64,000 bases of DNA from a virus, in IMG/VR virus record IMGVR_UViG_3300023242_000006, positions 5,476 through 69,475 of that record. The stretch is one strand, 5' to 3'. This document shows positions 2,233 through 57,253 of this stretch, in pieces. The notes beneath the pieces were generated by a model that was not told the DNA's origin, made no database searches, and saw nothing but the letters and a program-made list of their open reading frames with translations. Position numbers and translations under genes: made by a program. Each line of letters starts with the position of its first letter. The first letter of the stretch is position 1.

Positions 2233-2233
2233 A

Positions 2234-2762: not shown

Positions 2763-2763
2763 A

Positions 2764-17359: not shown

Positions 17360-17929
17360 TTAAGAAATCATTTTAATTTGTTTTGAATTTAATACAACAT
17401 ACACATTAGATACGTTTGCATCTTTACCATACCCAACACCATCATGTACATTTTTAATAATAACCCCATCAAAACCATATTTAATTGCTATTTCAGGTGT
17501 TCTATTTGTTGTTATCCTATCAACCCCATGTTTTAACAAATACTTAATCGCATCTTCACTATTTTCTATACCTTCTACTGAAATATAATCCCAAGATTCA
17601 AAATTAGCATCCACTATTAATGGTTTAACTATTTTAAGATATACATCATATATTATTTTTTCACCATTTTCTTTTTTAGAACGATGTGTTGCATATTTAT
17701 CAGCTAGATTAATATCAGTAGTAAAATATGCATATTGATTTTCACTTGTTCTGAATGAATCAAATTTATTATTTGTGCCATGATAAACTATTAATGGATT
17801 CCCATTTTTATCAACAACTTTACTATTACCAAACCATTCTCGAAAATTATCATTCAAATTGTTATTAATTGTTTTCTGTTCATTTAAATATTCACGTATA
17901 GTCGTTGCTATAAATTTCCTTAGTTCCAT
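17360..17929 (-). CDS. Hypothetical protein (189 aa). I suspect an ADP-ribosyltransferase-like fold but cannot confirm it
   Basis: VYHGT..F...YFTTD..ESWDY..EGIENSE segments. This is a weak impression only. Confidence 0.3.
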   Translation of the reverse strand: MELRKFIATTIREYLNEQKTINNNLNDNFREWFGNSKVVDKNGNPLIVYHGTNNKFDSFRTSENQYAYFTTDINLADKYATHRSKKENGEKIIYDVYLKIVKPLIVDANFESWDYISVEGIENSEDAIKYLLKHGVDRITTNRTPEIAIKYGFDGVIIKNVHDGVGYGKDANVSNVYVVLNSKQIKMIS

Positions 17930-25136: not shown

Positions 25137-28100
25137 CTAATCTTTAATTATTTTTATTGTCCTTGTTTTTAATTTAACAAAATATACACCCTTAGTTAAA
25201 TTACCAAAGTAAATAGTGTTACCATCTTGTTTTACCTTGATACTTCTACCCAAAACGTCATAAACTTTTACTCTTATATCGTTAGTTTCTAAGTAAAGAA
25301 CATCTCTAACGGGGTTAGGATAGGCGTAAAATAAGTCTTCTTTAACTTCCACCACTTTAAGAGGCTCTTGATAAACCAATTGAAATCTACCATTAAATTC
25401 GCCAACTTCTGATGTAAATGTATGGGGTAGTGAGTGTAATACTCCGTTATCTTTTACGTATACATTTTGTATTCCTTGAATTGAATCTAGTGATATTGTA
25501 AAGGTTTCGGCAACTGCTGTAAAATAACCTAACCCAACAACATCATTAACGTCAAACTCACCTCTCGACTGTATTTTATTTAAGTTATCAGAGTCATCTA
25601 AAGAGTAAAATTTAATAGCTTTTCTTGGAGATGAATCAATGTAGTCCCACCCCTTCTGATAGTTTTTAGTTGTTTCAGAGCTGTAACCTATAAGTTGTTG
25701 AGAAAATAACCCTAACTCTGTTGTTAAATTTAACCAAACCCTTTTAATTGAATCTTGAGATGTTCTAAAGAATACTACACTCGTCGTATTATCAATAACT
25801 TTATCCATAAAACTAGGTCTGAATATCAAATCATTTTCTGTCTGAGCCTCAACTAAGAAACCTTGCCCGCTACCAATCGCTGATGTTGGTATCTTACTAG
25901 TAAACGTTGCTGTAGTTCCTATTGTACCAGAAGTAGCCGTTCCACCTAATAAATTGTAATACGCATAATCCGAGGTAGAAAAATTATTAGCTTGTAGCCC
26001 TGGGTAAGTTGTTAAAAAACTCCCCGTATGTGTCCAATATGCTAATGTTCCGCTAATATTTGCTAAGTTTTCATTAATAAAATCGTTAGCTTTAATTGAC
26101 GATGAATAGGGGTTTCCCACTAAATTAAAATCATCAATATTACTAGAACTATTACCACTTAATTTTAATGGATATACAATCACCCCCGTATTCAAATCTC
26201 CCGTAAATGTCACTAGCTCGCCTCTTGGGTAGGGTGGTGAATTTGGTATTGATTTTATCATAGATGCATATCCCTTTCCCGCAACCATACTGTCTGTTTG
26301 GCTAGATAGAGTCCAAGCAAAGGGAGCTTCATCATCTTGACCATCGGGGTCATCAGATTGAAATACTCCGTTAAGATGCGTTTTAGTATCTAAAAAATTT
26401 TCCGTTATAAATTCAAATGTATAGTTATTTTGCCACGCCCCTAATGCTTGACTTATTGTTGTATTTACAGAGCTAGACAAATATGTATAGTCATATCTTT
26501 TCATTTGGGTAGTTCTTCTCTGAACAGAAATATTTCCATTTGAAGTTGATGAATCATTTATTGGTATTAATTTTCCACCCGATTCCACTATAAGACTTCC
26601 AAGATTCTCAATGTGGTTCTGAACAGTTACAAAATCACCCGATTTTACAACTAGACTCCCATTAACAGTTAAATTACAACAATCGAAGCTACCATTTATA
26701 GAAGTGTCATAATTACCATTTATTACAGCATTTCTAGTCTGAGAGGGGAAACCACCAACCCAAGAAGTTCCATTCCAAGTTGATGTTAAATTACAAGTAG
26801 CTAGTGTAATATTCTGATTTAATATATTATATCCATTAACATTATCCCACAAGCCAACATTAGCAAATTGAATTGAGTAACCAAGGTTATTTTCTAAATT
26901 ATTATCCGCTATATGTAATAACAACTCATAAGTGTCATTAGGCAAATCATTAGGTATTGTAATTGTAAATGAGTTCGTTCCCTTGTTAAGTTCTCTAATA
27001 TCAAAATTAATTAAGCGTTTAGTATAAACAGTTCCTCTTTTAAAGACTAAATATAATTTCTTTTCGTATAAAATATTAGCGTACCCAACATTATCTACGT
27101 TTAAGGTAAGTTGATTACCAATAATACTACTTGAGCGAAGTACAAGCCTATACCCAAGGTTTTTAATAATGGTTTCATAGTGGTTAGAAGCAATCCAATT
27201 ATTCCAAGTTGGAATATGGTAGTCTCTATTTAAAGTTGTAAAATTAAGATTATTCATCTCAGTAATAGCGTTAGAACCACTTGTTCTAGGAGGATTAGAC
27301 CCGTTAGTTTCACCCGTCATTGGTAAATAGCGAGAAGTATTAGATATGAACGTGTAGTCGGACGAACCCACAGGATTAGTAAATTGACCGCTAACACTAT
27401 AAGTCCCCATATCTGCATAATAATTTAAAAAAGCATCGTTATAGAAACCAATTCTATCCCCTCCAAAATTAGTAGGTACAGAATTACCATACATTATTCT
27501 CTTAGCATTAGCATATCTAAGTTGTAGTGGTATGTCAATATGAAAGTTTGCTAACATTGAATCGACAACTTCCTTTCTATTAGCCCATTGCACGTTTGAT
27601 ATAGTACCCGCATGCCCAAATTCGGTAGAGCTTGTATAATACCATTCACCCCAAGTTCCTATAAAACCCGCTTGAATTGACATTACAACATCTTTATTTA
27701 AATTTACAACATTTGACAATTGAGAGATGTGGCTTAGTATTTGAGACTTAGCGGGTTGTTGTAAATTAGTGCCACTATAACAATTTGAATCACAATCATT
27801 AGTATAAGCAAATCTTATAATAACCTTTAATCCAGCATTGCGAATTCTGTCAAAATCTGTTTGCATATTGGTAATATAAGTTGATGTCAAAGCACCACTT
27901 GGTAAAATAAAATATCTGTATACGACAGTGACTCTATCGGTGGATGTGCGCCAATTAGTCAAAGTACTTTGAGATAGTTGATTATAGGAGAAAGAGGTGG
28001 CGGGGGAAAGTAAAGAGCCTGATATATTGATAGAATATTTTTGTAACCCCCTTTCAGGGTTTTCTATTATTGCAGTACTTTCGGTGTAATTTATGGTTTG

Positions 28101-28295
28101 GGATACCGCTACAAAATTGATGAATAATAACACCAAATATATTAAGTTTTTGCGTTTAACATTGATACCTTCTACTACATGATACCAACCAGATAACTCT
28201 CGGTCAACGTTATCTTCCTTTTCAGTCACATCTTTATAGTGTGATTCAATTTTGTCAAATTGATTAATGAAATCAACTAATTTTAATTTTTTCAT
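25137..28295 (-). CDS. Large secreted protein with T9SS (Por) C-terminal sorting domain
   Basis: C-terminus FYAYPNPVRDVLYLE...VKVYDVLGRSIKV....GVYFVKLKT matches the Bacteroidetes T9SS CTD pattern. The N-terminal 45 aa duplicate the N-terminus of gene 24551..24928 and are followed by a signal-peptide-like LIYLVLLFINFVAVSQ. Confidence 0.7.
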   Translation of the reverse strand: MKKLKLVDFINQFDKIESHYKDVTEKEDNVDRELSGWYHVVEGINVKRKNLIYLVLLFINFVAVSQTINYTESTAIIENPERGLQKYSINISGSLLSPATSFSYNQLSQSTLTNWRTSTDRVTVVYRYFILPSGALTSTYITNMQTDFDRIRNAGLKVIIRFAYTNDCDSNCYSGTNLQQPAKSQILSHISQLSNVVNLNKDVVMSIQAGFIGTWGEWYYTSSTEFGHAGTISNVQWANRKEVVDSMLANFHIDIPLQLRYANAKRIMYGNSVPTNFGGDRIGFYNDAFLNYYADMGTYSVSGQFTNPVGSSDYTFISNTSRYLPMTGETNGSNPPRTSGSNAITEMNNLNFTTLNRDYHIPTWNNWIASNHYETIIKNLGYRLVLRSSSIIGNQLTLNVDNVGYANILYEKKLYLVFKRGTVYTKRLINFDIRELNKGTNSFTITIPNDLPNDTYELLLHIADNNLENNLGYSIQFANVGLWDNVNGYNILNQNITLATCNLTSTWNGTSWVGGFPSQTRNAVINGNYDTSINGSFDCCNLTVNGSLVVKSGDFVTVQNHIENLGSLIVESGGKLIPINDSSTSNGNISVQRRTTQMKRYDYTYLSSSVNTTISQALGAWQNNYTFEFITENFLDTKTHLNGVFQSDDPDGQDDEAPFAWTLSSQTDSMVAGKGYASMIKSIPNSPPYPRGELVTFTGDLNTGVIVYPLKLSGNSSSNIDDFNLVGNPYSSSIKANDFINENLANISGTLAYWTHTGSFLTTYPGLQANNFSTSDYAYYNLLGGTATSGTIGTTATFTSKIPTSAIGSGQGFLVEAQTENDLIFRPSFMDKVIDNTTSVVFFRTSQDSIKRVWLNLTTELGLFSQQLIGYSSETTKNYQKGWDYIDSSPRKAIKFYSLDDSDNLNKIQSRGEFDVNDVVGLGYFTAVAETFTISLDSIQGIQNVYVKDNGVLHSLPHTFTSEVGEFNGRFQLVYQEPLKVVEVKEDLFYAYPNPVRDVLYLETNDIRVKVYDVLGRSIKVKQDGNTIYFGNLTKGVYFVKLKTRTIKIIKD

Positions 28296-28449
28296 TTTTG
28301 GTTTGTGTTAATTATTTTTATTAATTCATTGGGATTATTAAATTATTTGTATTACCTTTGTGTAACTTTCATAAAACCTGTGGTCTTACAACCACATATA
28401 TAAAGTCATGCACACTATACTCAATATAGTCTTCGAGTTTAGGTCTATA

Positions 28450-28839
28450 TTATTTAAAAGCTACTGGGTTATCTACAACTTTACCCATGGCGTTCGCTTG
28501 TTTTACTGACAAGTGTCTGACCTTGCCATCTGCATCTGGATTACCAGACACTGCTTTACCAATTGCTGACCTGTCGGTTGCGTTGTCCGCACTACCTACA
28601 CCCGCAGCATCCATTACTTGAGATAACTTTAAAAGTTTACCATCGCCTTGCGTTGCGTTTTTAATCTTTTTTGTTAACGTTTGAACTTTTTTCTTTTCGT
28701 CTTGGTTCAACTCAGTGAATTTACCCTCAACATCTTCTTTTTCAGTGTCTTCTCCACCACCTTCTTTGTTCGCTTCTTTTATTTTACTAAGTAAAGATTC
28801 TCTAAGCATGTCTTTTATAAATGATTTTTTCATATCCAA
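28450..28839 (-). CDS. Hypothetical protein
   Basis: ORF of 129 aa. Confidence 0.45.
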   Translation of the reverse strand: MDMKKSFIKDMLRESLLSKIKEANKEGGGEDTEKEDVEGKFTELNQDEKKKVQTLTKKIKNATQGDGKLLKLSQVMDAAGVGSADNATDRSAIGKAVSGNPDADGKVRHLSVKQANAMGKVVDNPVAFK

Positions 28840-29210
28840 TTCTTTTATAATAAATATCTCTAAAACTAATAAAAATTAATAAAACACATATCTGCGTACA
28901 CATTTGTGTACATCAATATATTGTTTCTATGTTTAATATCATATTGATATTTTGACGTTATCACAAAATCAGTGCCGTTTAACTCGTATAGTCTATATCG
29001 TATATCGCTTATTCTATCCATTTACCCCAAATTCGTTCAAAATTTTCTTTTGATATAGCAAATATCTTTTCCATATCACGCCAAATTGATTTAAGCGAAA
29101 TGTCGGTTTTATTCATTTTATCATATAACGTATATGATGACAATGTTAATAAGCAAAACATGTAATTTTTATCTAGATAATTTATTATGATTTTTTCCAT
29201 CAGAAAAATT

Positions 29211-29504
29211 TTAGTTTAATTTTTTTTCAAAGTCTTTTTCTATTTGTACCATAACCACTTCTTTAAATGCTTGGTTTATTATTTTAGAATCAACACCAAA
29301 AATTTTACATAACTGTATTTCTACATCCCAAAGATAAGTATTTTTATCTGATTCTATTTCTTTGATACTAAAGTCATGGGCCAAAGGAAAACTTTTTCCT
29401 TTGGCCCTATCAGCATATATTCTGTAAACAACATAATGCTTGTCAATATATTTTTTGACAAGCATCACATTAAAAATATCTTCTTTACTATTAATCAAGT
29501 TCAT
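29211..29504 (-). CDS. Hypothetical protein
   Basis: ORF of 97 aa. Confidence 0.4.
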   Translation of the reverse strand: MNLINSKEDIFNVMLVKKYIDKHYVVYRIYADRAKGKSFPLAHDFSIKEIESDKNTYLWDVEIQLCKIFGVDSKIINQAFKEVVMVQIEKDFEKKLN

Positions 29505-30369
29505 TGTAAGCTAAAAGAACTCTAGGGTTTCTTCTCAATACGTTAAGTGATTTTTCACGTACTTGACGTACTCTTTCACGAGTTATCCCCATTCTATCAC
29601 CAACTTCATTAAGAGTCATAGGATTATTACCATTCAACCCAAATAAACATTCCATGATTTCCCTATCTCTTAAAGATAAAACACCAAGAATTGAGTTTAT
29701 TTCATCAATTAAATTTGAATCATTCAATATATGGTCAGTTGCTTTAAATGAATTATCAGCAATCAATTCACCTAACGCTGAACCACCATCATCGTTACCA
29801 ACTTGACGGTCCAATGAATCCATATTATATGTGCTTAATACATCTAAAAACAGGAAATCTTCATCGTTCATTTCGTTACCAAACTCTTCCATTACTTCTT
29901 GAACATCTACTTTACGACCTTTTATTTGTTCAAGTTCAGCAATCTTTTTATTTAACTTAGATAAGCTATTCAATTTATTTGCTGGAATACGAACCATCGT
30001 ACCATTCTTTGCGATGTGTTCTAGAATTATTTTTCTGACCCACCATACAGCATATGAAATAAATTTATAACCCATACTTGGTGTGAATTTCTCAGCAGCA
30101 ATAACTAATCCGATATTACCTTCATTTACTAAGTCTTCCAATGCTATACCATTACTAACATATTGTTTAGCAACTGACACAACAAAACGTAAATTTTTTT
30201 GAACTAATTCATTTATGGCTTTTTCATCACCTAAACTTGCTCTTTCACTAACAGCAAATTCTTCTTCTGGGGATGAGAACAAAGGAACACTCCCAATTTC
30301 TTTTAAATATTGTTTGAAAGATTCATTCTCTCTATTGGTAAGTTTGTACGAAATTTTTAATTGCTTCAT
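29491..30369 (-). CDS. RNA polymerase sigma-70 family factor (regions 2-4)
   Basis: Region 4 HTH LNEVGDRMGITRERVRQVREKSLNVLR. Region 2 FISYAVWWVRKII. About 290 aa. Confidence 0.8.
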   Translation of the reverse strand: MKQLKISYKLTNRENESFKQYLKEIGSVPLFSSPEEEFAVSERASLGDEKAINELVQKNLRFVVSVAKQYVSNGIALEDLVNEGNIGLVIAAEKFTPSMGYKFISYAVWWVRKIILEHIAKNGTMVRIPANKLNSLSKLNKKIAELEQIKGRKVDVQEVMEEFGNEMNDEDFLFLDVLSTYNMDSLDRQVGNDDGGSALGELIADNSFKATDHILNDSNLIDEINSILGVLSLRDREIMECLFGLNGNNPMTLNEVGDRMGITRERVRQVREKSLNVLRRNPRVLLAYNELD

Positions 30370-30433
30370 AAATAAATTATATTTTTAGTTAATGTTATGT
30401 AAAGGTAATGAATATATTTGGTTTTAAAAAGGC

Positions 30434-30877
30434 TTAATCAGTGTTTCTTTCTAAGTCTCTTTTTAAGTCTTTTTCTTTGATGGAGTGTTTTTTATCATAT
30501 AAGTGTTTACCTTTACCCAAACCAATGTTAACCTTGATAAACCCAGTGTTTGATACTATAATTTCAATAGGTACAATAGTCAACCCCTTTTGCGATAAAC
30601 TTTTATCTAACTTAAAGATTTCTTTTTTCTTCATAAGAAGCTTTCTATCTCTTAGCGGTAAATGATTGTTATGTTTACCACCTTCTTTGTGTTCAGCAAC
30701 GTGCATACCTTTAATAAACAACTCACCATTGGAGATGTAACAATAAGCCTCAACAATAGAAGCCTTACCATTCCTAATAGACTTAACCTCAGACCCAACC
30801 AAGACGATTCCCGATACAAAAGTTTCGATAATCTCATACTCAAATCTCGCTTTGCGATTAGTTAAAATAACTTTCAT
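30434..30877 (-). CDS. smpB: SsrA-binding protein SmpB
   Basis: MKVILTNRKARFEYEIIETFVSGIVLVGSEVKSIRNGKASIVEAYCYI is the canonical SmpB N-terminus. Start trimmed so that the promoter motif at 30886-30895 lies upstream. Confidence 0.8.
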   Translation of the reverse strand: MKVILTNRKARFEYEIIETFVSGIVLVGSEVKSIRNGKASIVEAYCYISNGELFIKGMHVAEHKEGGKHNNHLPLRDRKLLMKKKEIFKLDKSLSQKGLTIVPIEIIVSNTGFIKVNIGLGKGKHLYDKKHSIKEKDLKRDLERNTD

Positions 30878-30954
30878 AATATACAAAGGTACTAAATAAT
30901 TTCTAATTATACAATTTATTTACTTATTTAATTTTTATAACTATATTTATATTT

Positions 30955-31159: not shown

Positions 31160-31318
31160 ATGAAAAAAGACAAATTATCACCAAAAGAGAGAAAACAAAC
31201 CATAAGTATCCAGATTCCTAATGAATTAATAATTCATTTAGATGTAATTAATAATAAGAGTAAATTCTTCGAATGGTTATTAATTGAACATTTTAACACT
31301 TTAAAAAATGGAAAATAA
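31160..31318 (+). CDS. Ribbon-helix-helix-like small protein; overlaps the start of the downstream endonuclease gene
   Basis: ..KQTISIQIPNELIIHLD.. Its stop overlaps the ATG at 31308. Confidence 0.4.
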   Translation: MKKDKLSPKERKQTISIQIPNELIIHLDVINNKSKFFEWLLIEHFNTLKNGK

Positions 31319-32258
31319 AACTGAAAATTTTATTTCAAAAGCTAAATTAATACATGGTGATAAATATGATTATTCAAAAGTTAACTATATTAATAAAAGA
31401 ACTAACGTTAAAATAATTTGTTCTGAACATGGTGTTTTTGAACAATTAGTACATAACCATTTAAAAGGTAATGGTTGTATTAAATGTTCTGGAAAAGGTT
31501 TAACTAATGAAGAATTTATTAATAAATGTAATATAGTTCATAAAAATAAATTTAATTATTCATTGGTAGATTATAAAAATTGTTATGAAAAAATTAAAAT
31601 AATTTGCCCAATACATGATAAATTTGAACAAACACCAAGTTCTCATATTAGTGGTGTTGGTTGTTGGAAGTGTTTTAATGAGGATAGAACCACATCAAAT
31701 AATGAGTTCATATTAAAAGCCGAAAAAGTTCATAGCGATAAATATAATTATTCTAAAATTATTTATTTAAATAGTAAAGTTAATATCACAATTATTTGTC
31801 CAATACATGGTGACTTTGAACAAACACCTAATATGCATTTAAAAGGTTGTGGTTGCCGTAAATGTGGTTATATAACGGTGTCTAAAAAAGCAATTAATAA
31901 TTCACATAGTTTTTCACTATCAAGTTGGAAAAATATTATATCTAAAAACATAAAGGCTAAACCAATGTTATATATTATTAAATGTTATAATGATACTGAA
32001 GAATTCATTAAAATAGGTATAACAATAAACAACTTAAAAGGAAGATACCCTAGTAATAAACATATGCCTTATAAATATGATATAATATTAACACATGAAG
32101 CTGAACCAGAATTAGTGTTTAACATAGAAAAAGCGTTACACAGGTATTTTAAAAAAATTAAATACACCCCGACTATAAAATTCCATGGTATGGGTGAGTG
32201 TTATTATATAAAAGATAAACCAGAAATTTTAAACTATTGTAATAAACAATTAAATTAA
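31308..32258 (+). CDS. Putative homing endonuclease: three zinc-ribbon repeats plus a C-terminal T5orf172 (GIY-YIG-like) domain
   Basis: The repeat [10 protein letters not shown]..IICxxHGxFEQxPxxHLKGxGCxKC occurs three times. C-terminus [18 protein letters not shown].......YDIIL.HEA....[11 protein letters not shown]. It sits on the plus strand, opposite to all its neighbours. Confidence 0.6.
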
Positions 32259-32397
32259 TTTTCTTTAACTTCTGAACCCTGTAATTGAATACCAGCAGTA
32301 TATTTTTCTAGAATGAAATATTCAAAATATGCTTTCTTGTTAGAACAAATTTTATTCATTTTTTATGTGTTTTTAAATATAAAAGGTATTTAAATAG

Positions 32398-32471
32398 TGT
32401 CCACAACAGGAGTCGAACCTGTGACCTATCCCACATTGGGGGAGTGCTCTAACCAACTGAGCTATGTGGAC
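32398..32471 (-). tRNA. tRNA (74 nt) with textbook acceptor, D and T arms, and an anticodon loop CCAATGT that lacks U33
   Basis: Minus strand GTCCACA-TA-GCTCAGTTGGTTAGAGC-A-CTCCC-CCAATGT-GGGAT-AGGTC-ACAGGTTCGACTCCTGT-TGTGGAC-A. The anticodon would formally be AAU, so the identity is unresolved. Confidence 0.7.
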
Positions 32472-35123: not shown

Positions 35124-35225
35124 TGGTACATCGTATAGGAATCGAACCTATGTTACCGCAAGCGATTGGTACTTAATCTTCCGATGTGCTCTCATTTCGG
35201 CATTCTACCATTAAACTAACGATAT
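35124..35225 (-). tRNA. tRNA-like element A (encodes CCA; good T-arm; about 98 nt if the distal 5' acceptor strand is used, or a 60-nt minimal form)
   Basis: 3' end ..ATAGGTTCGATTCCTAT-ACGATGT-ACCA. Complementary 5' strands are ACATCGG at 35181-35187 or ATATCGT at 35219-35225. Confidence 0.45.
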
Positions 35226-35336
35226 GTTTGGTTATATTATATGGTGGTCTATCACCACAATGTTTTCAATAGTACTGTTTTATGTGTGCCTCACGTGATT
35301 ACTCACATCAATGTCGCTTTAATAATATAACCTAGA

Positions 35337-35408
35337 AACTCATACTGGATTCGAACCAGCGTCTGCGGGCTCAACGCCCACCATAGTGTCCACTCTACCA
35401 ATGAATCA
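35337..35408 (-). tRNA. tRNA (72 nt) with anticodon loop CGTTGAG (formally UUG, Gln-like, but G at position 33)
   Basis: GATTCAT-TG-GTAGAGTGGACACTAT-G-GTGGG-CGTTGAG-CCCGC-AGAC-GCTGGTTCGAATCCAGT-ATGAGTT-T. Confidence 0.55.
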
Positions 35409-35505
35409 ACTATCACTATGTCGCTCGGCAAAGTTAAACGTGATAGAAAGGATTATAACCGTCTGAAAGTTTGCCGACCTTCATGTTGCTATTCCCCAAT
35501 TTTGT

Positions 35506-35603
35506 GCGAGAGGGTGGACTCGAACCACCGACACCCAGTCCCTAGTTGTTCCCTTGTACTTCGGGCTAAAGACCTTAGCGTTTACCACTTCGCCACTCTC
35601 GCA
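35506..35603 (-). tRNA. tRNA-like element C (98 nt): perfect 7-bp acceptor stem GCGAGAG/CTCTCGC, 3-bp D-stem, good T-arm, but no canonical anticodon stem
   Basis: GCGAGAG-TG-GCGAAGTGGTAAACGC-...48 nt...-GGTGGTTCGAGTCCACC-CTCTCGC-A. Confidence 0.45.
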
Positions 35604-39849: not shown

Positions 39850-41877
39850 CTATAATCGAATTATTGTTAAATTAATATTCTTTTTATCGATATCTACACT
39901 AGAAACTACAACGTGAACCATATCACCCAAACGAATCTTATCACCTGTGTTATACCCTTTAACACAATAGTTACTCATATCAACTTGATATGTATCACCA
40001 GAAATTTCAGATAACTTAATAAGTCCTTCGGCTTTGGAATCAATTAATTCAACGTATATTCCGTATTCAGTTAATGATGTGATTATACCTTTATTTACAG
40101 TACCTACTTTATCGTTTAAATAAACACAATACATGTATTTGATTGAGTCACGTTCAGCTTTCTGTGCTTTCTTTTCTCTTTCAGATAAATGAATACATCT
40201 AGTTTCTAACTTCTCTAACTTAGGTGTTGTTTTCTTGTTCTCATCCAAATACAAAGCTAACAATCTATGAACGATTACATCACTGTAACGTCTGATTGGA
40301 CTAGTAAAGTGTGAATAGTTAGCAAAACCTAAACCATAGTGACCAATGTTTTTTGTTGTATAGTTTGCTTTTTGCATTGTTCTGACAACTAAGTTATTAA
40401 CCATATCTTCTTCAGCAGTACCACGTATATCTATTAACAATTTGTTAAGGGATTTTGTTGTTTCTTCTGGGGTATCGATTTTAATATCGTAACCAAACTG
40501 AACAATAAAGTCTTTTAACGCTGCTAACTTTTCTTCGTTAGGTTTATCGTGTGCTCTATTCACGTTGGGTAAACCTTTCGTGTTGATGAACTGAGCTACG
40601 TGTTTATTCGCTAACAACATGTATTCTTCAATAAGTTTGTTTGAGTCTTTGGCAACCTTGAATATAATCCCAGTTGGTTTACTATTCTCATCCAATTTGA
40701 ATTTGACCTCTTGTTTATCAAATGATAAAGAACCTTTTATCAAACGAACTTTACGCATCTTTTTAGCTATCTTGTTCAACGCCAATACAGCATCGGCTAG
40801 TTTTCTAGCTGGGTCCCAACCTAATAACCTTAAACCAGTGTCTTCCAATAGTATTTTGGTTCTACCCTCAACATCGTCTTTAGGTAACCTACCCAATTCA
40901 ATGATAGCTTGCGCTTCTTCGTAGCTAAATCTGTGGTCAGAGTTAATTACGGTTCTACCGAACCATTCTTCTAACACATGACCATTGTGGTCTAACTTAA
41001 AGACAGCAGAAAAACATAATTTATCTTCATTAGGTCTTAACGAACATAACCCATTAGATAGGTTCTCTGGAAGCATAGGGACACATCTATCAACTAAGTA
41101 AACACTTGTACCTCTGGCAAAAGCTTCTTTATCTAATTCGCTATCTGGACGTAAGTAATGTGATACATCGGCAATATGAACGCCAACATACAACTCACCA
41201 TCAAGCCATTCCACGCTCAACGCATCGTCAAAGTCTTTGGCATCAGCTGGGTCAATTGTGAAGGTAAGTACATCACGCATATCTCTACGTTTATCAATTT
41301 CTTCTTGTGTAATTTCTGTAGAAATCAAATTGGCCTCCATAATTACATCTGTTTCGAAATAGTAAGGTAAACCATATTCTTCTAAAATACTATGTATCTC
41401 AGTTTCGTGTTCACCAGCATTACCTAGAATTCTGATAACTTCACCGTTAGGGTTTTTAGCACCTTCTTTCCATTCAGTTATACTTGCAATTACTTTTTGG
41501 CCTTCTGTAGCACCCATTGTCTTGTTTAATGGAATAAAAAAGTCAATTGGTAGTTTGTTGCTATCTGGAACAAAGAAAGCAAATTTAGCGCTTATTTGGA
41601 TTACACCAACAAACTCTGTTCTAAAACGCTCAACTACCTCAATTACTTTACCTTCAAGTGCACGACCTTGACCAACCATTACCTCAATTTTTACCTTATC
41701 CAAATGCAACGCATGGTTAGTGTTGGTTTTATGAACATAAATGTCTTTTGGTAAATTCTCACTCACCAAATATGCGGACCCACTTTGAGTCATTGAGATT
41801 CGCCCTTCTAGTATGTCACCAACATTAATTCTATTTATTTTTTTTTCTATCATTATTATTTTTTTACAAATATACAT
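39850..41877 (-). CDS. RNase R / RNase II family 3'-5' exoribonuclease
   Basis: 675 aa with N-terminal OB/cold-shock-like region, central RNB-like region and C-terminal S1-like domain (..GIITSLTEYGIYVEL..). The size is that of VacB/RNase R. Confidence 0.65.
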   Translation of the reverse strand: MYICKKIIMIEKKINRINVGDILEGRISMTQSGSAYLVSENLPKDIYVHKTNTNHALHLDKVKIEVMVGQGRALEGKVIEVVERFRTEFVGVIQISAKFAFFVPDSNKLPIDFFIPLNKTMGATEGQKVIASITEWKEGAKNPNGEVIRILGNAGEHETEIHSILEEYGLPYYFETDVIMEANLISTEITQEEIDKRRDMRDVLTFTIDPADAKDFDDALSVEWLDGELYVGVHIADVSHYLRPDSELDKEAFARGTSVYLVDRCVPMLPENLSNGLCSLRPNEDKLCFSAVFKLDHNGHVLEEWFGRTVINSDHRFSYEEAQAIIELGRLPKDDVEGRTKILLEDTGLRLLGWDPARKLADAVLALNKIAKKMRKVRLIKGSLSFDKQEVKFKLDENSKPTGIIFKVAKDSNKLIEEYMLLANKHVAQFINTKGLPNVNRAHDKPNEEKLAALKDFIVQFGYDIKIDTPEETTKSLNKLLIDIRGTAEEDMVNNLVVRTMQKANYTTKNIGHYGLGFANYSHFTSPIRRYSDVIVHRLLALYLDENKKTTPKLEKLETRCIHLSEREKKAQKAERDSIKYMYCVYLNDKVGTVNKGIITSLTEYGIYVELIDSKAEGLIKLSEISGDTYQVDMSNYCVKGYNTGDKIRLGDMVHVVVSSVDIDKKNINLTIIRL

Positions 41878-43743: not shown

Positions 43744-43841
43744 ATTACAAAGGTACTATTAATTTTTTATATATCCAAATAATAATGTTCAATTCTATCG
43801 TCTTTTTAAAAATATGTGGATATTTATAATAAATATAAATT

Positions 43842-44486
43842 ATGACACTAGAAGAAAAAAAAGAAGCTAAAAGACTTTACGATATGGAATATCGTAAAAA
43901 AAATAAATTAAGAATATCAAAACAACAAAAAGCTAGATATAATGCTTTAAGTGACGAAGAACGTTTAATTATTAATAAAAATAAATACGAAAAATTAGAT
44001 AAAGAAAAAAAGAAAAAAAAAGATAAAGAATATGCTATTAAAAATAAAGAAAAATTAAATTTAAAAAAGAAATTATGGGGGTTAGAAAACCCAGAAAAAC
44101 ATAAAAAAGCTAAATATGATTATGTAAAGAAAATGATGAGTACTGATATTCTTTATAAACTAAAGAGATATGTTTCCGCATCAATAAATCAAAGTTTAAA
44201 GAAAAAAGGTTTTTATAAAAAATATAGGTCGTATGAAATACTTGGGTGTTCTTATGAAGAATTTAAAACCCATATCGAATCTAAGTTTGAACAATGGATG
44301 AATTGGGAAAATCGTGGTAATTGGAATGGGGTACCCAAAGAAATTAATACTGCTTGGGATATTGACCATATACTACCACTTAGTTCAGCAATGTGTGAAG
44401 AAGACGTTATTAAACTTAATCACTACACCAATCTACAACCACTTTGTAGTTATACTAATAGAAATATAAAAAGAGACCAATATTAA
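43842..44486 (+). CDS. HNH homing endonuclease
   Basis: C-terminus WDIDHILPLSSA....N.QPLCSYTNRNIK. Basic N-terminal region. Plus strand. Confidence 0.7.
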   Translation: MTLEEKKEAKRLYDMEYRKKNKLRISKQQKARYNALSDEERLIINKNKYEKLDKEKKKKKDKEYAIKNKEKLNLKKKLWGLENPEKHKKAKYDYVKKMMSTDILYKLKRYVSASINQSLKKKGFYKKYRSYEILGCSYEEFKTHIESKFEQWMNWENRGNWNGVPKEINTAWDIDHILPLSSAMCEEDVIKLNHYTNLQPLCSYTNRNIKRDQY

Positions 44487-45712: not shown

Positions 45713-45921
45713 AATATTGTTTTATTAATAAATATCACAATATTTCTCAAAATCAAATTTATTTTACAACCAACGTTCCATCAAAATCAAATACCGATAA
45801 TTTATTTATATTTTCCATAATTCTAATTTTCTGTTTCTAAACGTTTAATTACGTCTTTAATGTTAATAAATGATATTATTATACGTGATAGTATCGATAG
45901 CTGTTAATTTTGTCATGTGAT

Positions 45922-46827: not shown

Positions 46828-47322
46828 TTATTTAGATGGTTTTGGTTTAATCGTGGCGAACATTTTTTTACCTTCTAACTTAGGCATAGCCTCTGGGCTA
46901 CCATATTCTTCAACTGCAAGTATCGTCTTAAGAATTTGTTCTTGACCAATGTCAATATGTTGCATTTGTCGACCTCTAAATTGAAGACTAACTTTAATCC
47001 TATGGCCTTTTTGTAAAAACTCAACCATGTGTTTGATTCTGTAGTTCAAATCATTCTCAGATGTGTTAGGTCCTAGTTTGATTTCTTTCATGTCAAGTGT
47101 TTTGTTCTTAGGTTTTTTACTTTGTTCGTATATAAACTTTTCATAATTCATTACACGACAAACAGGTGGTTGAGCTTTTTCGTTAATCATAACCAAATCA
47201 AGTTCTTTTGATTTGGCTAATTTAATGGCATCAGCTAATGCCATTATTCCCTCATCAATAATACGCAATTCACTTGCTGTTATCTCTGAATTAAGTTTAT
47301 GTTCTATTATTTTTTTACGCAT
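46828..47322 (-). CDS. infC: Translation initiation factor IF-3
   Basis: ELRIIDEGIMALADAIKLAKSKELDLVMINEKAQPPVCRVMNYEKFIYEQSKK...LQFRGRQMQH aligns along the full length with bacterial IF-3. Confidence 0.8.
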   Translation of the reverse strand: MRKKIIEHKLNSEITASELRIIDEGIMALADAIKLAKSKELDLVMINEKAQPPVCRVMNYEKFIYEQSKKPKNKTLDMKEIKLGPNTSENDLNYRIKHMVEFLQKGHRIKVSLQFRGRQMQHIDIGQEQILKTILAVEEYGSPEAMPKLEGKKMFATIKPKPSK

Positions 47323-50457: not shown

Positions 50458-50523
50458 AATTATTCTTTATTATAAATATATCAAAATATTATAAAATACT
50501 GTTTTGTTCTGAATTTACTAAAA

Positions 50524-50778: not shown

Positions 50779-50996
50779 TACAAATCAAAACTAAGACTAC
50801 CACCTGTGTCATTAAAAAAATTGTTCGGTATTAACCCATGTTCAGCTAGACAAGAAATAACTATTTGTTTCATCATATATGAATTACCCGTAATCAAGGT
50901 TGCGTTAGAAGTGTTATTTTGAATACATAACCAAATAAACTCATCAACTGTCTTAACAACATCTTCGTGTTTTACACCATGCAAATCTAAAGTCAT
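50778..50996 (-). CDS. Smr domain protein
   Basis: LDLHGVKHEDVVKTVDEFI.....ATLITGNS. Confidence 0.6.
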   Translation of the reverse strand: MTLDLHGVKHEDVVKTVDEFIWLCIQNNTSNATLITGNSYMMKQIVISCLAEHGLIPNNFFNDTGGSLSFDL

Positions 50997-51469
50997 TTAT
51001 TTATTGTTTCTAAAATTTTATCTATACAAGCAACTTGTGTTTCATGAAGTAAGTCTCTAGCTTCATCTAAAGTAACCCATTTATAACCATCCATTTCTGG
51101 AAAACCACCTCGTTCAGCTGGAACGTTAGAATTACATTTAAGTTCTTGCTCACCCCAATTAAATTTTGAGTCCCTTTTTTCTAAGTACAAAAAAGGATAA
51201 ACAATTTTTTTCTTATGTCCGTAATTAACACCTAGCATTGGAAAAATATCAAAATCAGTAGAACCAGATAAATCTAGGTTTGTTTCCTCATACGTTTCAC
51301 GCAAGGCTCCTTCTAAGAATGTTTCATTTTCTTCAACCTTACCCTTTGGAATACTCCAAAAATTAGGTTTATGGTTTGTCGGGTGTGCTATTAATAATTG
51401 TTTATTTTTTCTTACAATAAACAAACCAGCAGCTATCGTTTTCATCATTTTAAATGATTTTAGTACCAA
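50993..51469 (-). CDS. NUDIX hydrolase
   Basis: Nudix box GKVEENETFLEGALRETYEETNL. Confidence 0.75.
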   Translation of the reverse strand: MVLKSFKMMKTIAAGLFIVRKNKQLLIAHPTNHKPNFWSIPKGKVEENETFLEGALRETYEETNLDLSGSTDFDIFPMLGVNYGHKKKIVYPFLYLEKRDSKFNWGEQELKCNSNVPAERGGFPEMDGYKWVTLDEARDLLHETQVACIDKILETINK

Positions 51470-51782
51470 CTAACGCCTCATACCATTCTTCACCGCCAGA
51501 AATATTCTTTGGTGGCAAAATCATTGCTTGACTTAATACCCCTTTAATTTCAAAAGGCGCTAAATTCGTTACAAAATTTGTTGTAAAATTAATGAATTCT
51601 TCTGGTTTATGCGTTTTACCTAAATTAGTAAAAACACTTCTAATATCACCATCACCAAAATCTACAATCATTTTAATACCATAGCTTTTTGGTATTGATG
51701 TCGCTTCTGTTATTCGACCAACTTTAATTTCTAGTTTGCTCTCGATTTCTAAGAACTCGTCAAAACTAATTTCTTTTTTCAT
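51450..51782 (-). CDS. tRNA-binding domain protein (CsaA/EMAP-like)
   Basis: FLEIESKLEIKVGRITEA..IPKS.YGIKMIVDFGDG is the OB-fold tRNA-binding signature. Confidence 0.6.
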   Translation of the reverse strand: MKKEISFDEFLEIESKLEIKVGRITEATSIPKSYGIKMIVDFGDGDIRSVFTNLGKTHKPEEFINFTTNFVTNLAPFEIKGVLSQAMILPPKNISGGEEWYEALVGTKII

Positions 51783-51940
51783 CTATGTAGAATTGTTCAG
51801 TAATTATTTTAATTTGTTTCTCGTTAGATTCAATAGCTCTATTAATTAAATCATCATTGATAGAACCTAACATAATTTTAAGTAACCTATTTGATTCTTG
51901 TAATGCTTCTTTAAAAGCTTTTAAATGCGATATCGATACT

Positions 51941-52372
51941 TTATACATTTATTAAATTCATTTTAGTTAATATTTCTTCTACTTTAACCCAGTCAACAAA
52001 TGGTCTAGGTGAAATTGCAAGGTCTATCTTCAAAGGGCAACCTAAAGCACTATCATCAATCATTAATGGAGCGTAGCTTTTAGGTGATGTTGTCCAATTC
52101 AATTGAGTTGGATTCTTTTGAATTCCATATAGAGGAATGTCATTAGTTTTAAACCAATTAATTGCATCGGTTAAACCATGGTTATCTGTGGTACCATCTA
52201 ATCTATCAAAATTACTACCATCACTTCTCATCGTGAAAAGAATAAGTCTATGACCATTCTCAACTAATTTTTTTAAAACAGTAATTGCACCTATATCATA
52301 ACCAACTCTAGGGTAATCATGCGTAACAACAGTTCCGTCAAAATACAAGTTAATTTCAATTGTATTTTTCAT
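51941..52372 (-). CDS. HAD-like phosphatase (divergent motif I)
   Basis: NLYFDGTVVTHDYP. It shares a fold signature with 56821..57252 and 57254..57817. Confidence 0.4.
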   Translation of the reverse strand: MKNTIEINLYFDGTVVTHDYPRVGYDIGAITVLKKLVENGHRLILFTMRSDGSNFDRLDGTTDNHGLTDAINWFKTNDIPLYGIQKNPTQLNWTTSPKSYAPLMIDDSALGCPLKIDLAISPRPFVDWVKVEEILTKMNLINV

Positions 52373-52417
52373 ACTACAAAGGTACTAAGATTATTTTAAA
52401 TACGCAAGTAAAAATAA

Positions 52418-52648
52418 ATTAAAATTACCTTTTGATTTCTATTTACCAGATTTTAATATTTGTATTGAATTTAACGGGATTCAACATTATAAAGTAGTTG
52501 AACATTTTGGTGGGGTTCAAGGGTTTAATTCTAGGAAAATTAATGATAAAATAAAAAGGGAATATTGTTTACTAAACAATATTCCACTTATTATTATTAA
52601 ATATAATGACAATGTTGGTGATAAATTAACTTATTCAAAAGTAGTATA
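52418..52648 (+). pseudogene. C-terminal remnant of a PD-(D/E)XK homing endonuclease domain
   Basis: The plus frame reads LPFDFYLPDFNICIEFNGIQHYKVVEHFGGVQGF..IIIKYND. It matches the C-terminus of 49570..50457 and has no N-terminal part. Confidence 0.55.
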
Positions 52649-54244
52649 ACCCAACTTACCGTCTTTATCTAGCATAAAATTTATGTGTTGGGCTCGACCA
52701 TCTGTGTGGATAATAACATGTGATTGTAACCATGAGCTGGCACCTCTGTTATAACCCACCCTTAATTTTGTACTAGTACCAACAGCCAATGCTCCGTCCT
52801 TTCTACCAGGCGAGTGATAATGACCAACCACAATTTTAGTATTTAATTTTCTAAATTGTAATAACGAACCTCGACTACCATTTGAACCTATGTCACCATG
52901 TTGACCTAATTCCCAATCTTTAACCCGATAAGAAGCGCTTCGACCCAACGTAATAAACTTAGGAAACTTCTGGTTGATGATACTTGGAATTACTCCTTTG
53001 ACATTATAAGGGTCGTTAGAGTATTGCTCTAACAACATATCAGACATTTTCATGTAAAGTCTAGAATTTTTGTACGTTGGTTGTTTCTTCCAATCTTCAT
53101 TCTTAAGCCAACGGTCTAAGAAATCATCATGATTACTTCTGACAATAACCACGTTATCAAACTTTTCAAATGCTTTTAACGATTCTAACATAAAATCAAC
53201 CTCTTTACCTAAGTCATTAGTGCCAGATATTTCTTTACCATACTGAATGAAAGGGTCTTTAATCTCATGATGGGTAATTGAAGACCCATCAAATACGTCA
53301 TGTAATATAACGTGTTGTGGTTTTACTCTTTCAAATAAACTAAGTGTTGTATCTAAAACGTCTTGGTCATGATGTCCATAGTGAATATCACCTAATATAG
53401 CAGCAGCGAATTTAGTTACTTCACTTACCTCACCTTTTTCAACTCGATAATATAAATCAGTAAAATTACCTGTTTTATCATCAGCGGTTACTTGTCTAAC
53501 GAAAAATGTGTCATCATTTTTAATCTCAACAATAACGAATCCAAATGTATGGTGGAACTCGCCAGTTTTACCAGCTTTAGAATCAGTATAATTCTTTTTA
53601 GTTACAGCACCAGTAGTGGTCATCATTTTAGGTTTGTTACCTTCTAATACTGAAATCATTTCTAACTGAACCTTTGGGCTACCAAACACGCATGAATTAA
53701 TACCACTCAACGCTTGTAAACCAGTCATAGGGTTCACAGCCGTTGGTTGAATCTTAATATCTGACATAATCGATACGTACTTATGTATATCATGTCTGTT
53801 AGCATCTAGGTATGGTAATACCTCTGAAACCCAAAATTCTGATTCTTCTTGTTGATTTGTCCACATACTAGTAGGGTTTCTATACCTACCAGCTATGATA
53901 TGAATATCAGCAGCGATAAATTCAGCATAAGCTTCTAAGTTTTTCATCAAACCAGTATGAACAGGCGTATTGTTCTGAGCCCAACTTATAATAAAACGTT
54001 TTTTAGTCCCGTCATGGACTCTTGTTTTGGCTTTTACATACTGTTCTGGTTCAATTTCAACTTTTTCTTTGAAGTTTAATTTTTTAAACCATTTTCTAAC
54101 GGTTCTCTCTGATAACCCTAAGTCATTACCAATTTTAATTGCTAATTTCTCAACTGTTAAATTATTTTCTAACCTATTAACATATTCTAACCTAAATTTC
54201 TCAATTTCAATTTCAGTTAAATCTTTAAATTTAATTTTTACCAT
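52631..54244 (-). CDS. Calcineurin-like metallophosphoesterase with N-terminal HTH region
   Basis: GDIHYGHHD, HDVFDG, RSNHDD, GHYH motifs. N-terminus LSERTVRKWFKK. Confidence 0.65.
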   Translation of the reverse strand: MVKIKFKDLTEIEIEKFRLEYVNRLENNLTVEKLAIKIGNDLGLSERTVRKWFKKLNFKEKVEIEPEQYVKAKTRVHDGTKKRFIISWAQNNTPVHTGLMKNLEAYAEFIAADIHIIAGRYRNPTSMWTNQQEESEFWVSEVLPYLDANRHDIHKYVSIMSDIKIQPTAVNPMTGLQALSGINSCVFGSPKVQLEMISVLEGNKPKMMTTTGAVTKKNYTDSKAGKTGEFHHTFGFVIVEIKNDDTFFVRQVTADDKTGNFTDLYYRVEKGEVSEVTKFAAAILGDIHYGHHDQDVLDTTLSLFERVKPQHVILHDVFDGSSITHHEIKDPFIQYGKEISGTNDLGKEVDFMLESLKAFEKFDNVVIVRSNHDDFLDRWLKNEDWKKQPTYKNSRLYMKMSDMLLEQYSNDPYNVKGVIPSIINQKFPKFITLGRSASYRVKDWELGQHGDIGSNGSRGSLLQFRKLNTKIVVGHYHSPGRKDGALAVGTSTKLRVGYNRGASSWLQSHVIIHTDGRAQHINFMLDKDGKLGYTTFE

Positions 54245-54550
54245 TATTTTTTAAAATTTTATTTATTTTATTTATTTTAGTTAATAAATTATCTGTTTTT
54301 TCATTGTATTTTATTATTATTAACTTTATTTTATTATTGTCACAGTAATCTTTTTTTATTTTATCTTTCTTCTGTTGTTCTTTTAAACCACTTGTACCAC
54401 CAAATAACATAAAAAATACCAGCTATTACACTTGCGATGACAATATACTTAAAAACCACCACAAACATAAAGACTCCAAAAAAAACGCCTTGAATAACGA
54501 ATACCGTTAACAGACTAATCAATAGGTATAATGAAAATTTTGCCTTCATT

Positions 54551-54910
54551 TTAATTTATTTTTTTCCACATTCGGTCATGAAATTTTGTTTTGTACGTTC
54601 CCAACTCGAAACTATTGTTGTGTAATATGATATCTAAAGCCATCGGTAATTCAGAATATAATTTATCCCACTCGGCTTTTTGTTCGTCAGAATACTCCTT
54701 AATTTCTTCCACATTAAATGGGTCAAAATATGCTGGCATACCATTCAACATAAGGTCAATCTCTTCGTAAAGACTATCACCATTAAATGGTGGCATATAT
54801 TCTTCACCATCATGTTTAACACCAGAAATAATGTTATCTTTCATCGACCAACGTAATTTTGACAACAATGTTACGTGTTCTTTTTTTAATTCTAATTTTA
54901 GTACTGACAT
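54551..54910 (-). CDS. Hypothetical protein
   Basis: ORF of 119 aa. Confidence 0.45.
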   Translation of the reverse strand: MSVLKLELKKEHVTLLSKLRWSMKDNIISGVKHDGEEYMPPFNGDSLYEEIDLMLNGMPAYFDPFNVEEIKEYSDEQKAEWDKLYSELPMALDIILHNNSFELGTYKTKFHDRMWKKIN

Positions 54911-54914
54911 TCGG

Positions 54915-55298
54915 TTATTTTTTTACATAAGAATCCAATAATACTTGGACCCGTTTATTATCTTTTTTAGCTTTAGCTTGTTCTTTCTCAACCCTACTAT
55001 CTATATACTCACAAATAGCTATCGCCCTTAAATTGTTATAAAATTTACCATTATGTTCGTTTCCTTTAACCACAAAAGCAACTGTTACTACTTCATTAAG
55101 GCTAAATCTTTCTAATGTTTCAACGTTTTCATTAATAAATTCTAACTTAACAATCTCTGGGTATTGTTCTTCTGTTTTTACAACAAATTCTCTCTTTTTA
55201 AAGTTACCAAATTCCTGTATCTCTCCAATTTGTTTAATTGTACCATCTAAAAAATAATGCATATATTTAATTTTGTTCGTTAATAATTCTTTCCACAA
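54915..55298 (-). CDS. Hypothetical protein
   Basis: ORF of 127 aa. Confidence 0.45.
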   Translation of the reverse strand: MWKELLTNKIKYMHYFLDGTIKQIGEIQEFGNFKKREFVVKTEEQYPEIVKLEFINENVETLERFSLNEVVTVAFVVKGNEHNGKFYNNLRAIAICEYIDSRVEKEQAKAKKDNKRVQVLLDSYVKK

Positions 55299-55995
55299 TT
55301 TCTGTCACCCCTTCAACAGCACTTTTCTCTACGTACTCAATGTTTAAATCAAGTGTGTCTAAATCATGACTAGGGTTAGGGTCAACGTATATTACGTTAA
55401 AACCTTTCGGTAGGTTATCAAAAAAACTTAAGGTATAACCAATTTGTAAACTAGTTCCAACAATTATTACAATATCAGCTGTTAAAAAAGCATCATAAGC
55501 TTTATTTACATCAAAAGGATATTCACCAAACCATACAATGTGTGGTCTTAATTGTGCACCATACTTCTCGCATTTATCACCAATATTAATATCAGAATAA
55601 CCAATGTCAATAGAATCTAACTTAACTTTTAAAAGATTACCAGTTAAATAAGAACTCCTAGCTTTAGTTAACTCACCATGCAAGTGAATGATGTTAGTAG
55701 ACCCACCTCTTTCGTGCAAATCATCAACATTTTGTGTAACGATAGTTACATCAAAGTCTTCTTCTAACCTAGCCAATGCTTTATGTGCATTGTTAGGTTC
55801 AACACTTGGCATTTGTCTTCTGCGGTCATTGTAAAAGTTAAGTACTTTCTCACGGTCTTTTCTCCAACCATCAAGAGTACAAACTTCTTCAATCTTATGG
55901 TTTTCCCAAAGGCCATCTACCAAATCTCTGAATGTATCAACACCAGATTCTTTGCTTATTCCAGCACCTGTAAATATAACTACTTTCTTTTTCAT
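55267..55995 (-). CDS. Sir2-family NAD+-dependent deacylase or ADP-ribosyltransferase (no Zn-ribbon Cys4)
   Basis: GAGISKESGVDTFRD, TQNVDDLHERGG, catalytic LHGEL. Confidence 0.75.
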   Translation of the reverse strand: MKKKVVIFTGAGISKESGVDTFRDLVDGLWENHKIEEVCTLDGWRKDREKVLNFYNDRRRQMPSVEPNNAHKALARLEEDFDVTIVTQNVDDLHERGGSTNIIHLHGELTKARSSYLTGNLLKVKLDSIDIGYSDINIGDKCEKYGAQLRPHIVWFGEYPFDVNKAYDAFLTADIVIIVGTSLQIGYTLSFFDNLPKGFNVIYVDPNPSHDLDTLDLNIEYVEKSAVEGVTEIVERIINEQN

Positions 55996-57252: not shown

Positions 57253-57253
57253 A

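Follow-up and report, generated by a model that had tools for sequence, protein, structure and literature searches.

A conserved smpB-sigma operon and other host-type expression genes in an uncultured, probably huge phage of Bacteroidota

Introduction

Do phage genes that resemble host transcription and translation factors serve the expression of the phage genome, or are they passengers of recent host origin? This question is raised by a 64,000-nucleotide (nt) stretch of viral DNA, hereafter the window (IMG/VR record IMGVR_UViG_3300023242_000006, positions 5,476 to 69,475), in which a sigma-70 factor gene lies next to smpB, and genes for initiation factor IF-3, an RNase R-type exoribonuclease and a tRNA-binding protein are found elsewhere. 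We analyzed these five genes, their promoters and the corresponding loci of related viruses. With a probability of about 0.7, we propose that a huge Bacteroidota phage carries intact, selected host-type expression genes, which would act in the steps set out in the Discussion.

Results

Identity and selection of the five genes

A sequence-only reading of the window had assigned five open reading frames (ORFs) to expression factors of host type. All five were present on the minus strand, exactly where that reading had placed them (Table 1), and the set does span transcription, ribosome rescue, translation initiation and RNA decay. Chance can be discounted for the profile matches, whose E-values were 1e-11 to 1e-199, and both SmpB and IF-3 were supported over their full lengths.

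SmpB matched PF01668 with 177 bits (cut-off 27) at positions 1-140 of 143, and exceeded the cut-offs of TIGR00086 (169.6 versus 119.1 bits) and NF003843 (180.3 versus 130). Alignments to solved SmpB structures covered residues 1-145, and its basic C-terminal tail, GKGKHLYDKKHSIKEKDLKRDLERNTD, aligned with the tails of the best solved chains (7ljp, 5zey and 1p6v). IF-3 carries both domains of the family and scored 153 bits against the equivalog TIGR00168 (cut-off 60); relative to the solved chains 5me0 and 8jsg (residues 13-178) it has gaps of ∼5 residues in the N-domain and the linker. In many bacteria a non-canonical (AUU-type) infC start serves autoregulation. This feature, which does not define the family, is not present in the phage gene, whose ATG start suggests that the gene escapes such control; the overlap with the upstream gene is 8 nt.

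The RNase R-type enzyme scored 663 bits with TIGR02063 (cut-off 598) and 363 bits with RNB. Its catalytic motif DAKDFDDA (DxxxxDxDD) is kept and aligns with DAKDLDDA of Bacillus subtilis RNase R, to which the phage protein aligns over residues 70-708 of 779. The profile match begins at model position 58 and ends with the S1 domain; the protein lacks the N-terminal helix-turn-helix (HTH) domain as well as the C-terminal basic tail rich in Lys and Arg. The fifth protein had been called CsaA-like, a name that proved too specific. Among the CsaA and stand-alone tRNA-binding models used (TIGR02222 and NF007492-6), it fell below every cut-off (29.6 versus 119.65 bits for TIGR02222; 32.2 versus 117 for NF007495), and its best solved matches were the C-terminal domains of lysyl- and methionyl-tRNA synthetases (LysRS and MetRS). 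It is a generic stand-alone tRNA_bind OB domain, nearest to domains appended to aminoacyl-tRNA synthetases and to Trbp111.

Comparison with the closest relative, locus L001 (L-numbers denote related loci), gave ratios of nonsynonymous to synonymous substitution rates (dN/dS) of 0.12-0.26 for all five genes, including 0.14 for the sigma factor, 0.26 for SmpB and 0.13 for the tRNA_bind protein, which among the relatives was found only in L001. All five genes are under purifying selection. Together with the conserved gene order described next, these values indicate maintained huge-phage genes and not recent debris.

The smpB-sigma pair is conserved in related phages

The IMG/VR database holds 418 relatives of the sigma factor and >120 distinct SmpB clusters; both families are diverse in public metagenomes. 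Among the loci of the best 80 of these 418 sigma relatives, 37 have both genes, and in all 37 smpB lies upstream of the sigma gene on the same strand, so the proximity of the two genes noted in the sequence-only reading holds well beyond the window. Across the 37 loci the sigma factors are 38-89% identical to that of the window, and the gap between the two genes is at most 120 nt in 30 of them. In 26 loci of the clade RNase R lies further upstream on the same strand. The one-strand succession is RNase R, two metallophosphatases, smpB and sigma, and the order RNase R ... Metallophos ... smpB-sigma was seen in L002, L006, L007 and L008. On the 233-369 kb contigs of the clade a few kb separate IF-3 from RNase R. 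A syntenic block of IF-3, RNase R, SmpB and sigma is conserved in the clade.

This arrangement was not found outside the clade. None of 80 Bacteroidota genomes carries smpB, infC or rnr within 3 kb of rpoD, and no sigma, rnr or infC gene was present within 10 kb of smpB in Lak-A1, LR756504 and LR756501 (the latter two being phages of 636-735 kb). The adjacency of smpB and sigma is thus a conserved trait specific to the clade of the window.

No terminator-like hairpin was found between smpB and sigma; the first one downstream comes after three further conserved small genes past sigma (Table 1), for which Pfam searches gave nothing above threshold. The first of these, of 97 amino acids (aa), is 84% identical to its counterpart in L001; among 13 sequences compared, it gave only weak, short BLASTP matches in L008 (28%, E=8e-8) and L006 (25%, E=5e-5). 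The second is intact in L001, L002 and L006 (104-131 aa), and its split in the window reflects a frameshift or a sequencing error.

The phage sigma factor is related to sigma A of Bacteroidota

The sigma factor matched Sigma70_r1_2 (25.9 bits), r2 (64.1) and r4 (43.7), all above the Pfam cut-offs, whereas region 3 was weak (21.3 bits, just under the cut-off of 25.3), and it aligned over its full length to the solved SigA chains 7l7b_F and 7ckq_F. Scanning one genome for each bacterial species yielded solely primary sigma factors of Bacteroidota type. Like these, the phage protein has no region 1.1, and its 292 aa compare with 285-291 aa in 60 of 61 extracted bacterial sigma A sequences. The N-terminal motif MKQLKI..TNRE.SF..YL.EI, in more general form M(K/R)QLKI..(I/L)TNRE.S...YL.EI, is common to both groups, and the core-binding region 2.2 and the R-E-R-x-R-Q residues of region 4.2 are conserved.

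The phage protein is, however, only 40-44% identical to sigma A of 80 Bacteroidota genomes (from residue 1 to ∼283-288). In a joint alignment the bacterial sequences share ∼71% identity with one another and the phage sequences ∼58%, whereas the two groups share ∼40%. Changes fixed in the phage clade fall in regions 2.4 and 3.0 (Q->K at K113 of the window protein, plus E117, K121, A130 and N134). To judge by these comparisons, the phage sigma is an old, diverged paralogue of host sigma A and not its housekeeping orthologue, which explains why it stays under every NCBIfam equivalog cut-off, including those for RpoD and RpoS (207 versus 378.7 bits for TIGR02394; 177 versus 354 for TIGR02393).

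A recurrent promoter of sigma-A type

The smpB-sigma pair is preceded by a -7 box, TACCTTTG, and a -33 TTG element (Table 1). Bacteroidota sigma A recognizes a -33 TTG and a -7 TAnnTTTG (in Flavobacterium the latter box occupies positions -12 to -5; PMC9723704), and the predicted smpB-sigma promoter is near-consensus for this type. The sequence TACCTTTG occurs 32 times in the window (both strands), versus 3.1 times expected. Twenty-six copies are on the coding strand, mostly just upstream of start codons, with at least three inside coding sequence or far from a start, and 6 are on the other strand. The tetranucleotide TTTG is located exactly 20 nt upstream in 16 of the 26 coding-strand copies. 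In contrast, a scan for promoters of the Escherichia coli type near sigma gave 24 sites versus 17 expected, a difference that is not meaningful in AT-rich DNA. Operons containing smpB-sigma are also preceded by such a box in L001, L006 and L008.

Since the box ends so close to the smpB ATG, a leader of only 0-3 nt is predicted. An alternative TTG start at position 30886, the outer limit given in the sequence-only reading, falls within the box, hence the ATG at 30877 is likely the smpB start. Leaderless mRNAs are predicted from about 7 of the 26 promoters; in Flavobacterium psychrophilum such mRNAs are reported to amount to 5.5% (PMC9723704).

Although the phage promoters share the architecture and spacing of Bacteroidota sigma-A promoters, they fix both 'n' positions lineage by lineage. 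The dinucleotide is CC in 16 of the 21 full motifs of the window and in 21 of 33 in its relatives; the corresponding figure for Bacteroidota DNA (498 kb) is only 3 of 30. The preferred dinucleotide is CC, TA or CA, depending on the lineage, and the -7 box accordingly reads TACCTTTG in the lineage of the window and TATATTTG or TACATTTG in sister lineages.

The dominance of CC, its rarity in Bacteroidota DNA, the variation among lineages and the clade-fixed changes in regions 2.4 and 3.0 would all fit the possibility that the phage -7 box is read mainly by the phage sigma instead of host sigma A, with the nominally free positions forming a phage-specific promoter code. We consider this unlikely. 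The sigma gene itself lies behind a sigma-A-type box in the window and in L001, L006 and L008, so the host sigma-A polymerase must be able to read the box first, and the phage sigma is not needed to start its own expression. L280 (a CC locus) and L279 (TA) both keep the lysine of the Q->K change in region 2.4. More generally, no sigma residue segregated cleanly with the dinucleotide class beyond phylogeny, the TA class being a single clade, and a phage-specific code is therefore offered here as a hypothesis. Concerted evolution, or duplication of promoters within one genome, would be expected to leave the same pattern.

A second conserved motif, GATATTTAT(A/T)AT(A/T)AAA, lies ∼10 nt before the ATG of several genes: a conserved gene of the operon, three ORFs of homing-endonuclease or insert type, and one plus-strand gene. 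Sites of this type were found on the minus strand at 28845-28857, 43824-43836, 45723-45735, 50467-50479 and 60661-60673, and on the plus strand at 43820-43832, before the plus-strand gene 43842-44486. The motif is also present in L001, L002 and L006, and may mark a distinct, perhaps late, promoter class.

The window probably belongs to an uncultured huge phage

The window has a G+C content of ∼30% and a coding density of 88%. Nearly all genes are on the minus strand (110 of the 124 called ORFs lie on one strand), small ORFs are numerous, and 20 of the 52 larger ORFs scanned have no Pfam match. PHROG matches revealed phage-type content, namely a T5 A1-like protein (phrog_1745), NadV and HNH, GIY-YIG and T5orf172 endonucleases; three homing endonucleases and AAA ATPases are encoded. 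The contig of the window itself is 69.5 kb, and its syntenic relatives in IMG/VR and NCBI, with the same genes in the same order, are on contigs of 233-369 kb. Contigs of the clade include IMGVR_UViG_3300028676_000003 (368,549 bp), IMGVR_UViG_3300042502_001233 (362,018 bp) and JAWVHA010000067.1 (350,439 bp). That the five genes are phage-encoded, as first proposed from the sequence-only reading, is borne out by the PHROG matches, the one-strand ORFs and these viral relatives.

Megablast of 20 kb of the window against GenBank phages gave no match, and the best tblastn match of the sigma factor reached only 37%; the clade has no GenBank representative. A 1052-aa protein (25137-28295, minus strand) with DUF4874 and DUF4832 domains has a Por C-terminal sorting domain of the type IX secretion system (T9SS), which points to a Bacteroidota host; it is apparently built for export through the secretion system of the host. 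We conclude that: i) the window most likely derives from an uncultured huge phage with a host in Bacteroidota, and ii) this host is probably Flavobacteriia-like.

Neighboring genes and other features of the window

A homing-endonuclease cassette, oriented opposite to smpB, sits between the full smpB and an N-terminal remnant of a second, diverged smpB allele (Table 1). L001 carries this remnant as well. Between L001 and the window the endonuclease is 100% identical, whereas the flanking genes are 89-93% identical, which suggests recent homing and allele replacement at smpB.

The sequence-only reading had also mentioned tRNAs, and four tRNA or tRNA-like genes were indeed found. The tRNA-Ile has an AAT anticodon instead of the usual bacterial GAT, and its predicted loop looks atypical. 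In the two tRNA-like genes, inserts of ∼25-28 nt lie in the part that comprises the anticodon arm and the variable region. Just upstream of smpB in L276, L279, L288, L296 and L307, ARAGORN reported 'tRNA-???' genes with 6- or 8-nt anticodon loops. The tRNA-like genes of the window and these genes of the related loci may contain introns, be unusual decoders or be degenerate tRNAs.

Two regions (50993-62468 and 17360-17929) carry NMNAT-Nudix, NadV, NADAR, Macro, Sir2, Nudix and an ART-PolyVal ADP-ribosyltransferase, together with two HAD 'Swiss Army Knife' domains of the RNA-repair type; this NAD+/ADP-ribose set looks like an NAD-replenishing, anti-defence cluster. NadV/NAMPT (58916-61394, minus strand) is apparently split into an N-terminal domain (60849-61394) and a catalytic part (58916-59827). 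The ∼1 kb between them holds a 182-aa ORF (60094-60642) preceded by a GATATTTAT-type motif. The split could be due to an intron or a homing-endonuclease insertion; Rfam detected no group I intron in it, and the ORF had no Pfam match above threshold.

At positions 1-2774 (minus strand) a tandem array holds at least 11 small paralogous genes of 55-95 aa. Their products begin with M(K/I)LGKSIKDKV(R/K)DSV, continue with 'xxSV' tetrapeptide repeats and end in IPKIK. The DNA consists of ∼180 copies of a 12-nt unit nested in repeats of 167-175 nt, and the long plus-strand ORFs 910-1254 and 1085-1981 look like repeat artefacts.

Table 1. Features of the smpB-sigma region and of the other expression genes, in window coordinates.
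Feature	Position	Strand	Details
Terminator-like hairpin	28379..28396	-	First one downstream of smpB-sigma
Conserved ∼127-aa gene	28450..28839	-	No Pfam match; last before the terminator-like hairpin
Second-motif copy, GATATTTATTATAAA	28845-28857	-	Before the conserved ∼127-aa gene 28450..28839
Conserved operon gene	28866..29200	-	Split in the window into 63-aa and 51-aa ORFs
97-aa gene, fast-evolving	29211..29504	-	Overlaps the sigma stop codon by 14 nt; no Pfam match
Sigma-70 factor, compact Bacteroidota sigma-A type	29491..30369	-	292 aa; regions 1.2, 2, weak 3, and 4
smpB, full length	30434..30877	-	147 aa from ATG; tail motif GKGKHLYDKK
-7 box TACCTTTG, Bacteroidota sigma-A type	30884..30891	-	Ends 6 nt before the smpB ATG
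-33 TTG element	30912..30914	-	20 nt upstream of the -7 box
Homing-endonuclease cassette	31160..32258	+	52-aa ORF and 316-aa T5orf172/DUF723-type protein
Remnant of second, diverged smpB allele (N-terminal)	32255..32359	-	34 codons
tRNA-Ile	32397-32471	-	Anticodon AAT by ARAGORN
Two tRNA-like genes	35127-35225, 35505-35602	-	98-99 nt
tRNA-Gln	35335-35407	-	Within tRNA cluster 35127..35602
RNase R-type 3'-5' exoribonuclease	39850..41877	-	OB, CSD2, RNB and S1 domains
infC (IF-3)	46828..47322	-	Both domains: IF3_N 82.6 bits, IF3_C 97.6 bits
Stand-alone tRNA_bind OB-fold protein	51450..51782	-	PF01588 43.6 bits, cut-off 27

Discussion

The proposed mechanism would proceed as follows. Early in infection the host sigma-A RNA polymerase would read the phage promoters. 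The phage sigma would then bind the host core polymerase, and keep or shift transcription onto phage promoters. SmpB would work with the transfer-messenger RNA (tmRNA) of the host, or with a phage copy encoded elsewhere in the genome, and free ribosomes stalled on truncated mRNAs; such mRNAs would arise from RNA decay during infection, to which the phage RNase R would contribute. IF-3 would aid the recycling of ribosomal subunits as well as initiation on the phage mRNAs, a large part of which are predicted to have little or no leader. The sequence-only reading had spoken of a takeover toolkit, a description that is conjectural.

Several observations weigh against this proposal. The 64-kb window showed no gene for a capsid, portal or terminase protein, and the phage status is based on gene content and on the IMG/VR classification of the relatives. 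No tmRNA was detected in the window (ARAGORN; Rfam at gathering thresholds and at E<=0.5) or within 10 kb of smpB-sigma in 29 loci of the clade (ARAGORN, 35 related loci), searches that covered the window and the clade loci near smpB and not the rest of the ∼300-370 kb genomes or the host. In E. coli the C-terminal basic tail couples RNase R to trans-translation, recruiting it to tmRNA-rescued ribosomes; the phage enzyme lacks this tail, hence a direct link between SmpB and RNase R is unsupported. In E. coli an excess of IF-3 would be expected to act against leaderless mRNAs, which fits poorly with the share of predicted leaderless transcripts in the window. A search of IMG/VR with a degenerate tmRNA 3'-end pattern gave at least 120 stretches, none of the 80 contigs listed belonging to the clade, and was uninformative.

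The comparison with bacterial trans-translation is accordingly mixed. The phage SmpB is full length with its tail, and the catalytic motif of the phage RNase R is intact; in contrast to the bacterial system, no tmRNA gene was found within reach of the phage smpB, RNase R has neither the N-terminal HTH nor the C-terminal basic tail, and smpB is linked to sigma, a link unseen in the 80 Bacteroidota genomes.

A bolder version, which we hold to be quite doubtful, would make smpB-sigma one functional unit. The lineage-specific -7 box (TACCTTTG, TATATTTG or TACATTTG), read by the phage sigma, would constitute a private promoter code on the host polymerase. SmpB, made from the same nearly leaderless transcript as the phage sigma, would commandeer host tmRNA and keep ribosomes free while RNase R shreds host RNA, and the IF-3 variant would tolerate leaderless mRNAs.

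Phage interference with the tmRNA pathway has been considered before: a mycobacteriophage tmRNA that consists of the tRNA-like domain only was proposed to titrate SmpB (PMC4131195). The phage SmpB might likewise be an antagonist or decoy that sequesters host tmRNA, or that occupies stalled ribosomes and so keeps phage proteins from being tagged and proteolysed. In keeping with such a role, searches near smpB gave no phage tmRNA, and the protein is ∼13 residues shorter than E. coli SmpB (147 versus 160), the difference being apparently mostly N-terminal. The decoy reading is nevertheless very unlikely, given that both the tail (GKGK..YDKK...K.KD.KRD) and the RNA-binding core can be aligned throughout with those of functional SmpBs, that the length is uniform (146-148 aa) in >120 clade sequences, and that the scores exceed the equivalog cut-offs.

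That the window is a piece of a bacterial chromosome, a plasmid or another element is highly improbable. Large plasmid-like elements with similar gene suites have been noted (Al-Shayeb et al. 2020, PMC7162821), and the missing virion genes and the many cellular-type genes, the T9SS-sorted protein among them, would agree with such an origin. Ribosomal proteins and other core housekeeping families, however, found no match among the scanned ORFs; the window has small ORFans on one strand, three homing endonucleases, and T5 A1-like and NadV/NMNAT genes of phage type; one promoter recurs 26 times; and the 233-369 kb relatives are IMG/VR viral contigs. A bacterial origin was rejected on this phage-type gene content and on the viral relatives. 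It is hardly credible that the five genes are recent host-derived passengers without a phage role. All five have cellular homologues, and the region is recombinationally active (homing endonucleases, smpB remnant), but this view was rejected because the genes are under purifying selection, synteny is kept over 38-89% sigma identity, and the sigma factor shares only 40-44% identity with any bacterial sigma A, compared with ∼71% within the bacterial group.

How does the gene set of this huge Bacteroidota phage compare with known systems? Huge phages recurrently carry IF1/IF3, SmpB with tmRNAs, and sigma-70 factors (PMC7162821), so the gene content of the window is mostly expected. By tblastn, 68 GenBank phage records contain SmpB and 60 contain IF-3, although some of these entries look bacterial. 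The set had been described as unusual in extent, and phage smpB and infC as rare; this is true only relative to small cultured phages. Like the genomes of >200 kb described previously, including those of Lak phages, the window encodes IF-3, SmpB, sigma-70 and tRNAs, its SmpB being 45-50% and its IF-3 36-40% identical to theirs. It belongs, however, to another clade; no tmRNA was found in it or near the clade smpB genes, and the smpB-sigma pair has no counterpart in the 10 kb around smpB of Lak-A1, LR756504 and LR756501.

The "moraphages", Flavobacteriia jumbo phages of 200-307 kb from freshwater metagenomes, have a sigma factor among their core genes and no phage RNA polymerase (PMC12619734), and hence depend on the host polymerase. 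By their published description they resemble the clade of the window in predicted Bacteroidota hosts, genome sizes and the sigma factor. They differ in that they are stated to lack much of the machinery of other large phages, and SmpB, IF-3 and RNase R are not mentioned (PMC12619734).

The new detail consists in the sigma-A origin of the phage sigma, the conserved smpB-sigma operon, a sharp promoter with lineage variants, and predicted leaderless transcripts. The window adds a well-defined, widespread, uncultured clade to the huge phages with host-type expression genes. This clade offers a sigma-A paralogue from the host phylum with unusual promoters, and a phage-specific, deeply conserved smpB-sigma pair. 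If the specificity of the sigma factor or of IF-3 were altered, it would show a virus re-tuning the transcription of Bacteroidota and their translation without Shine-Dalgarno sequences.

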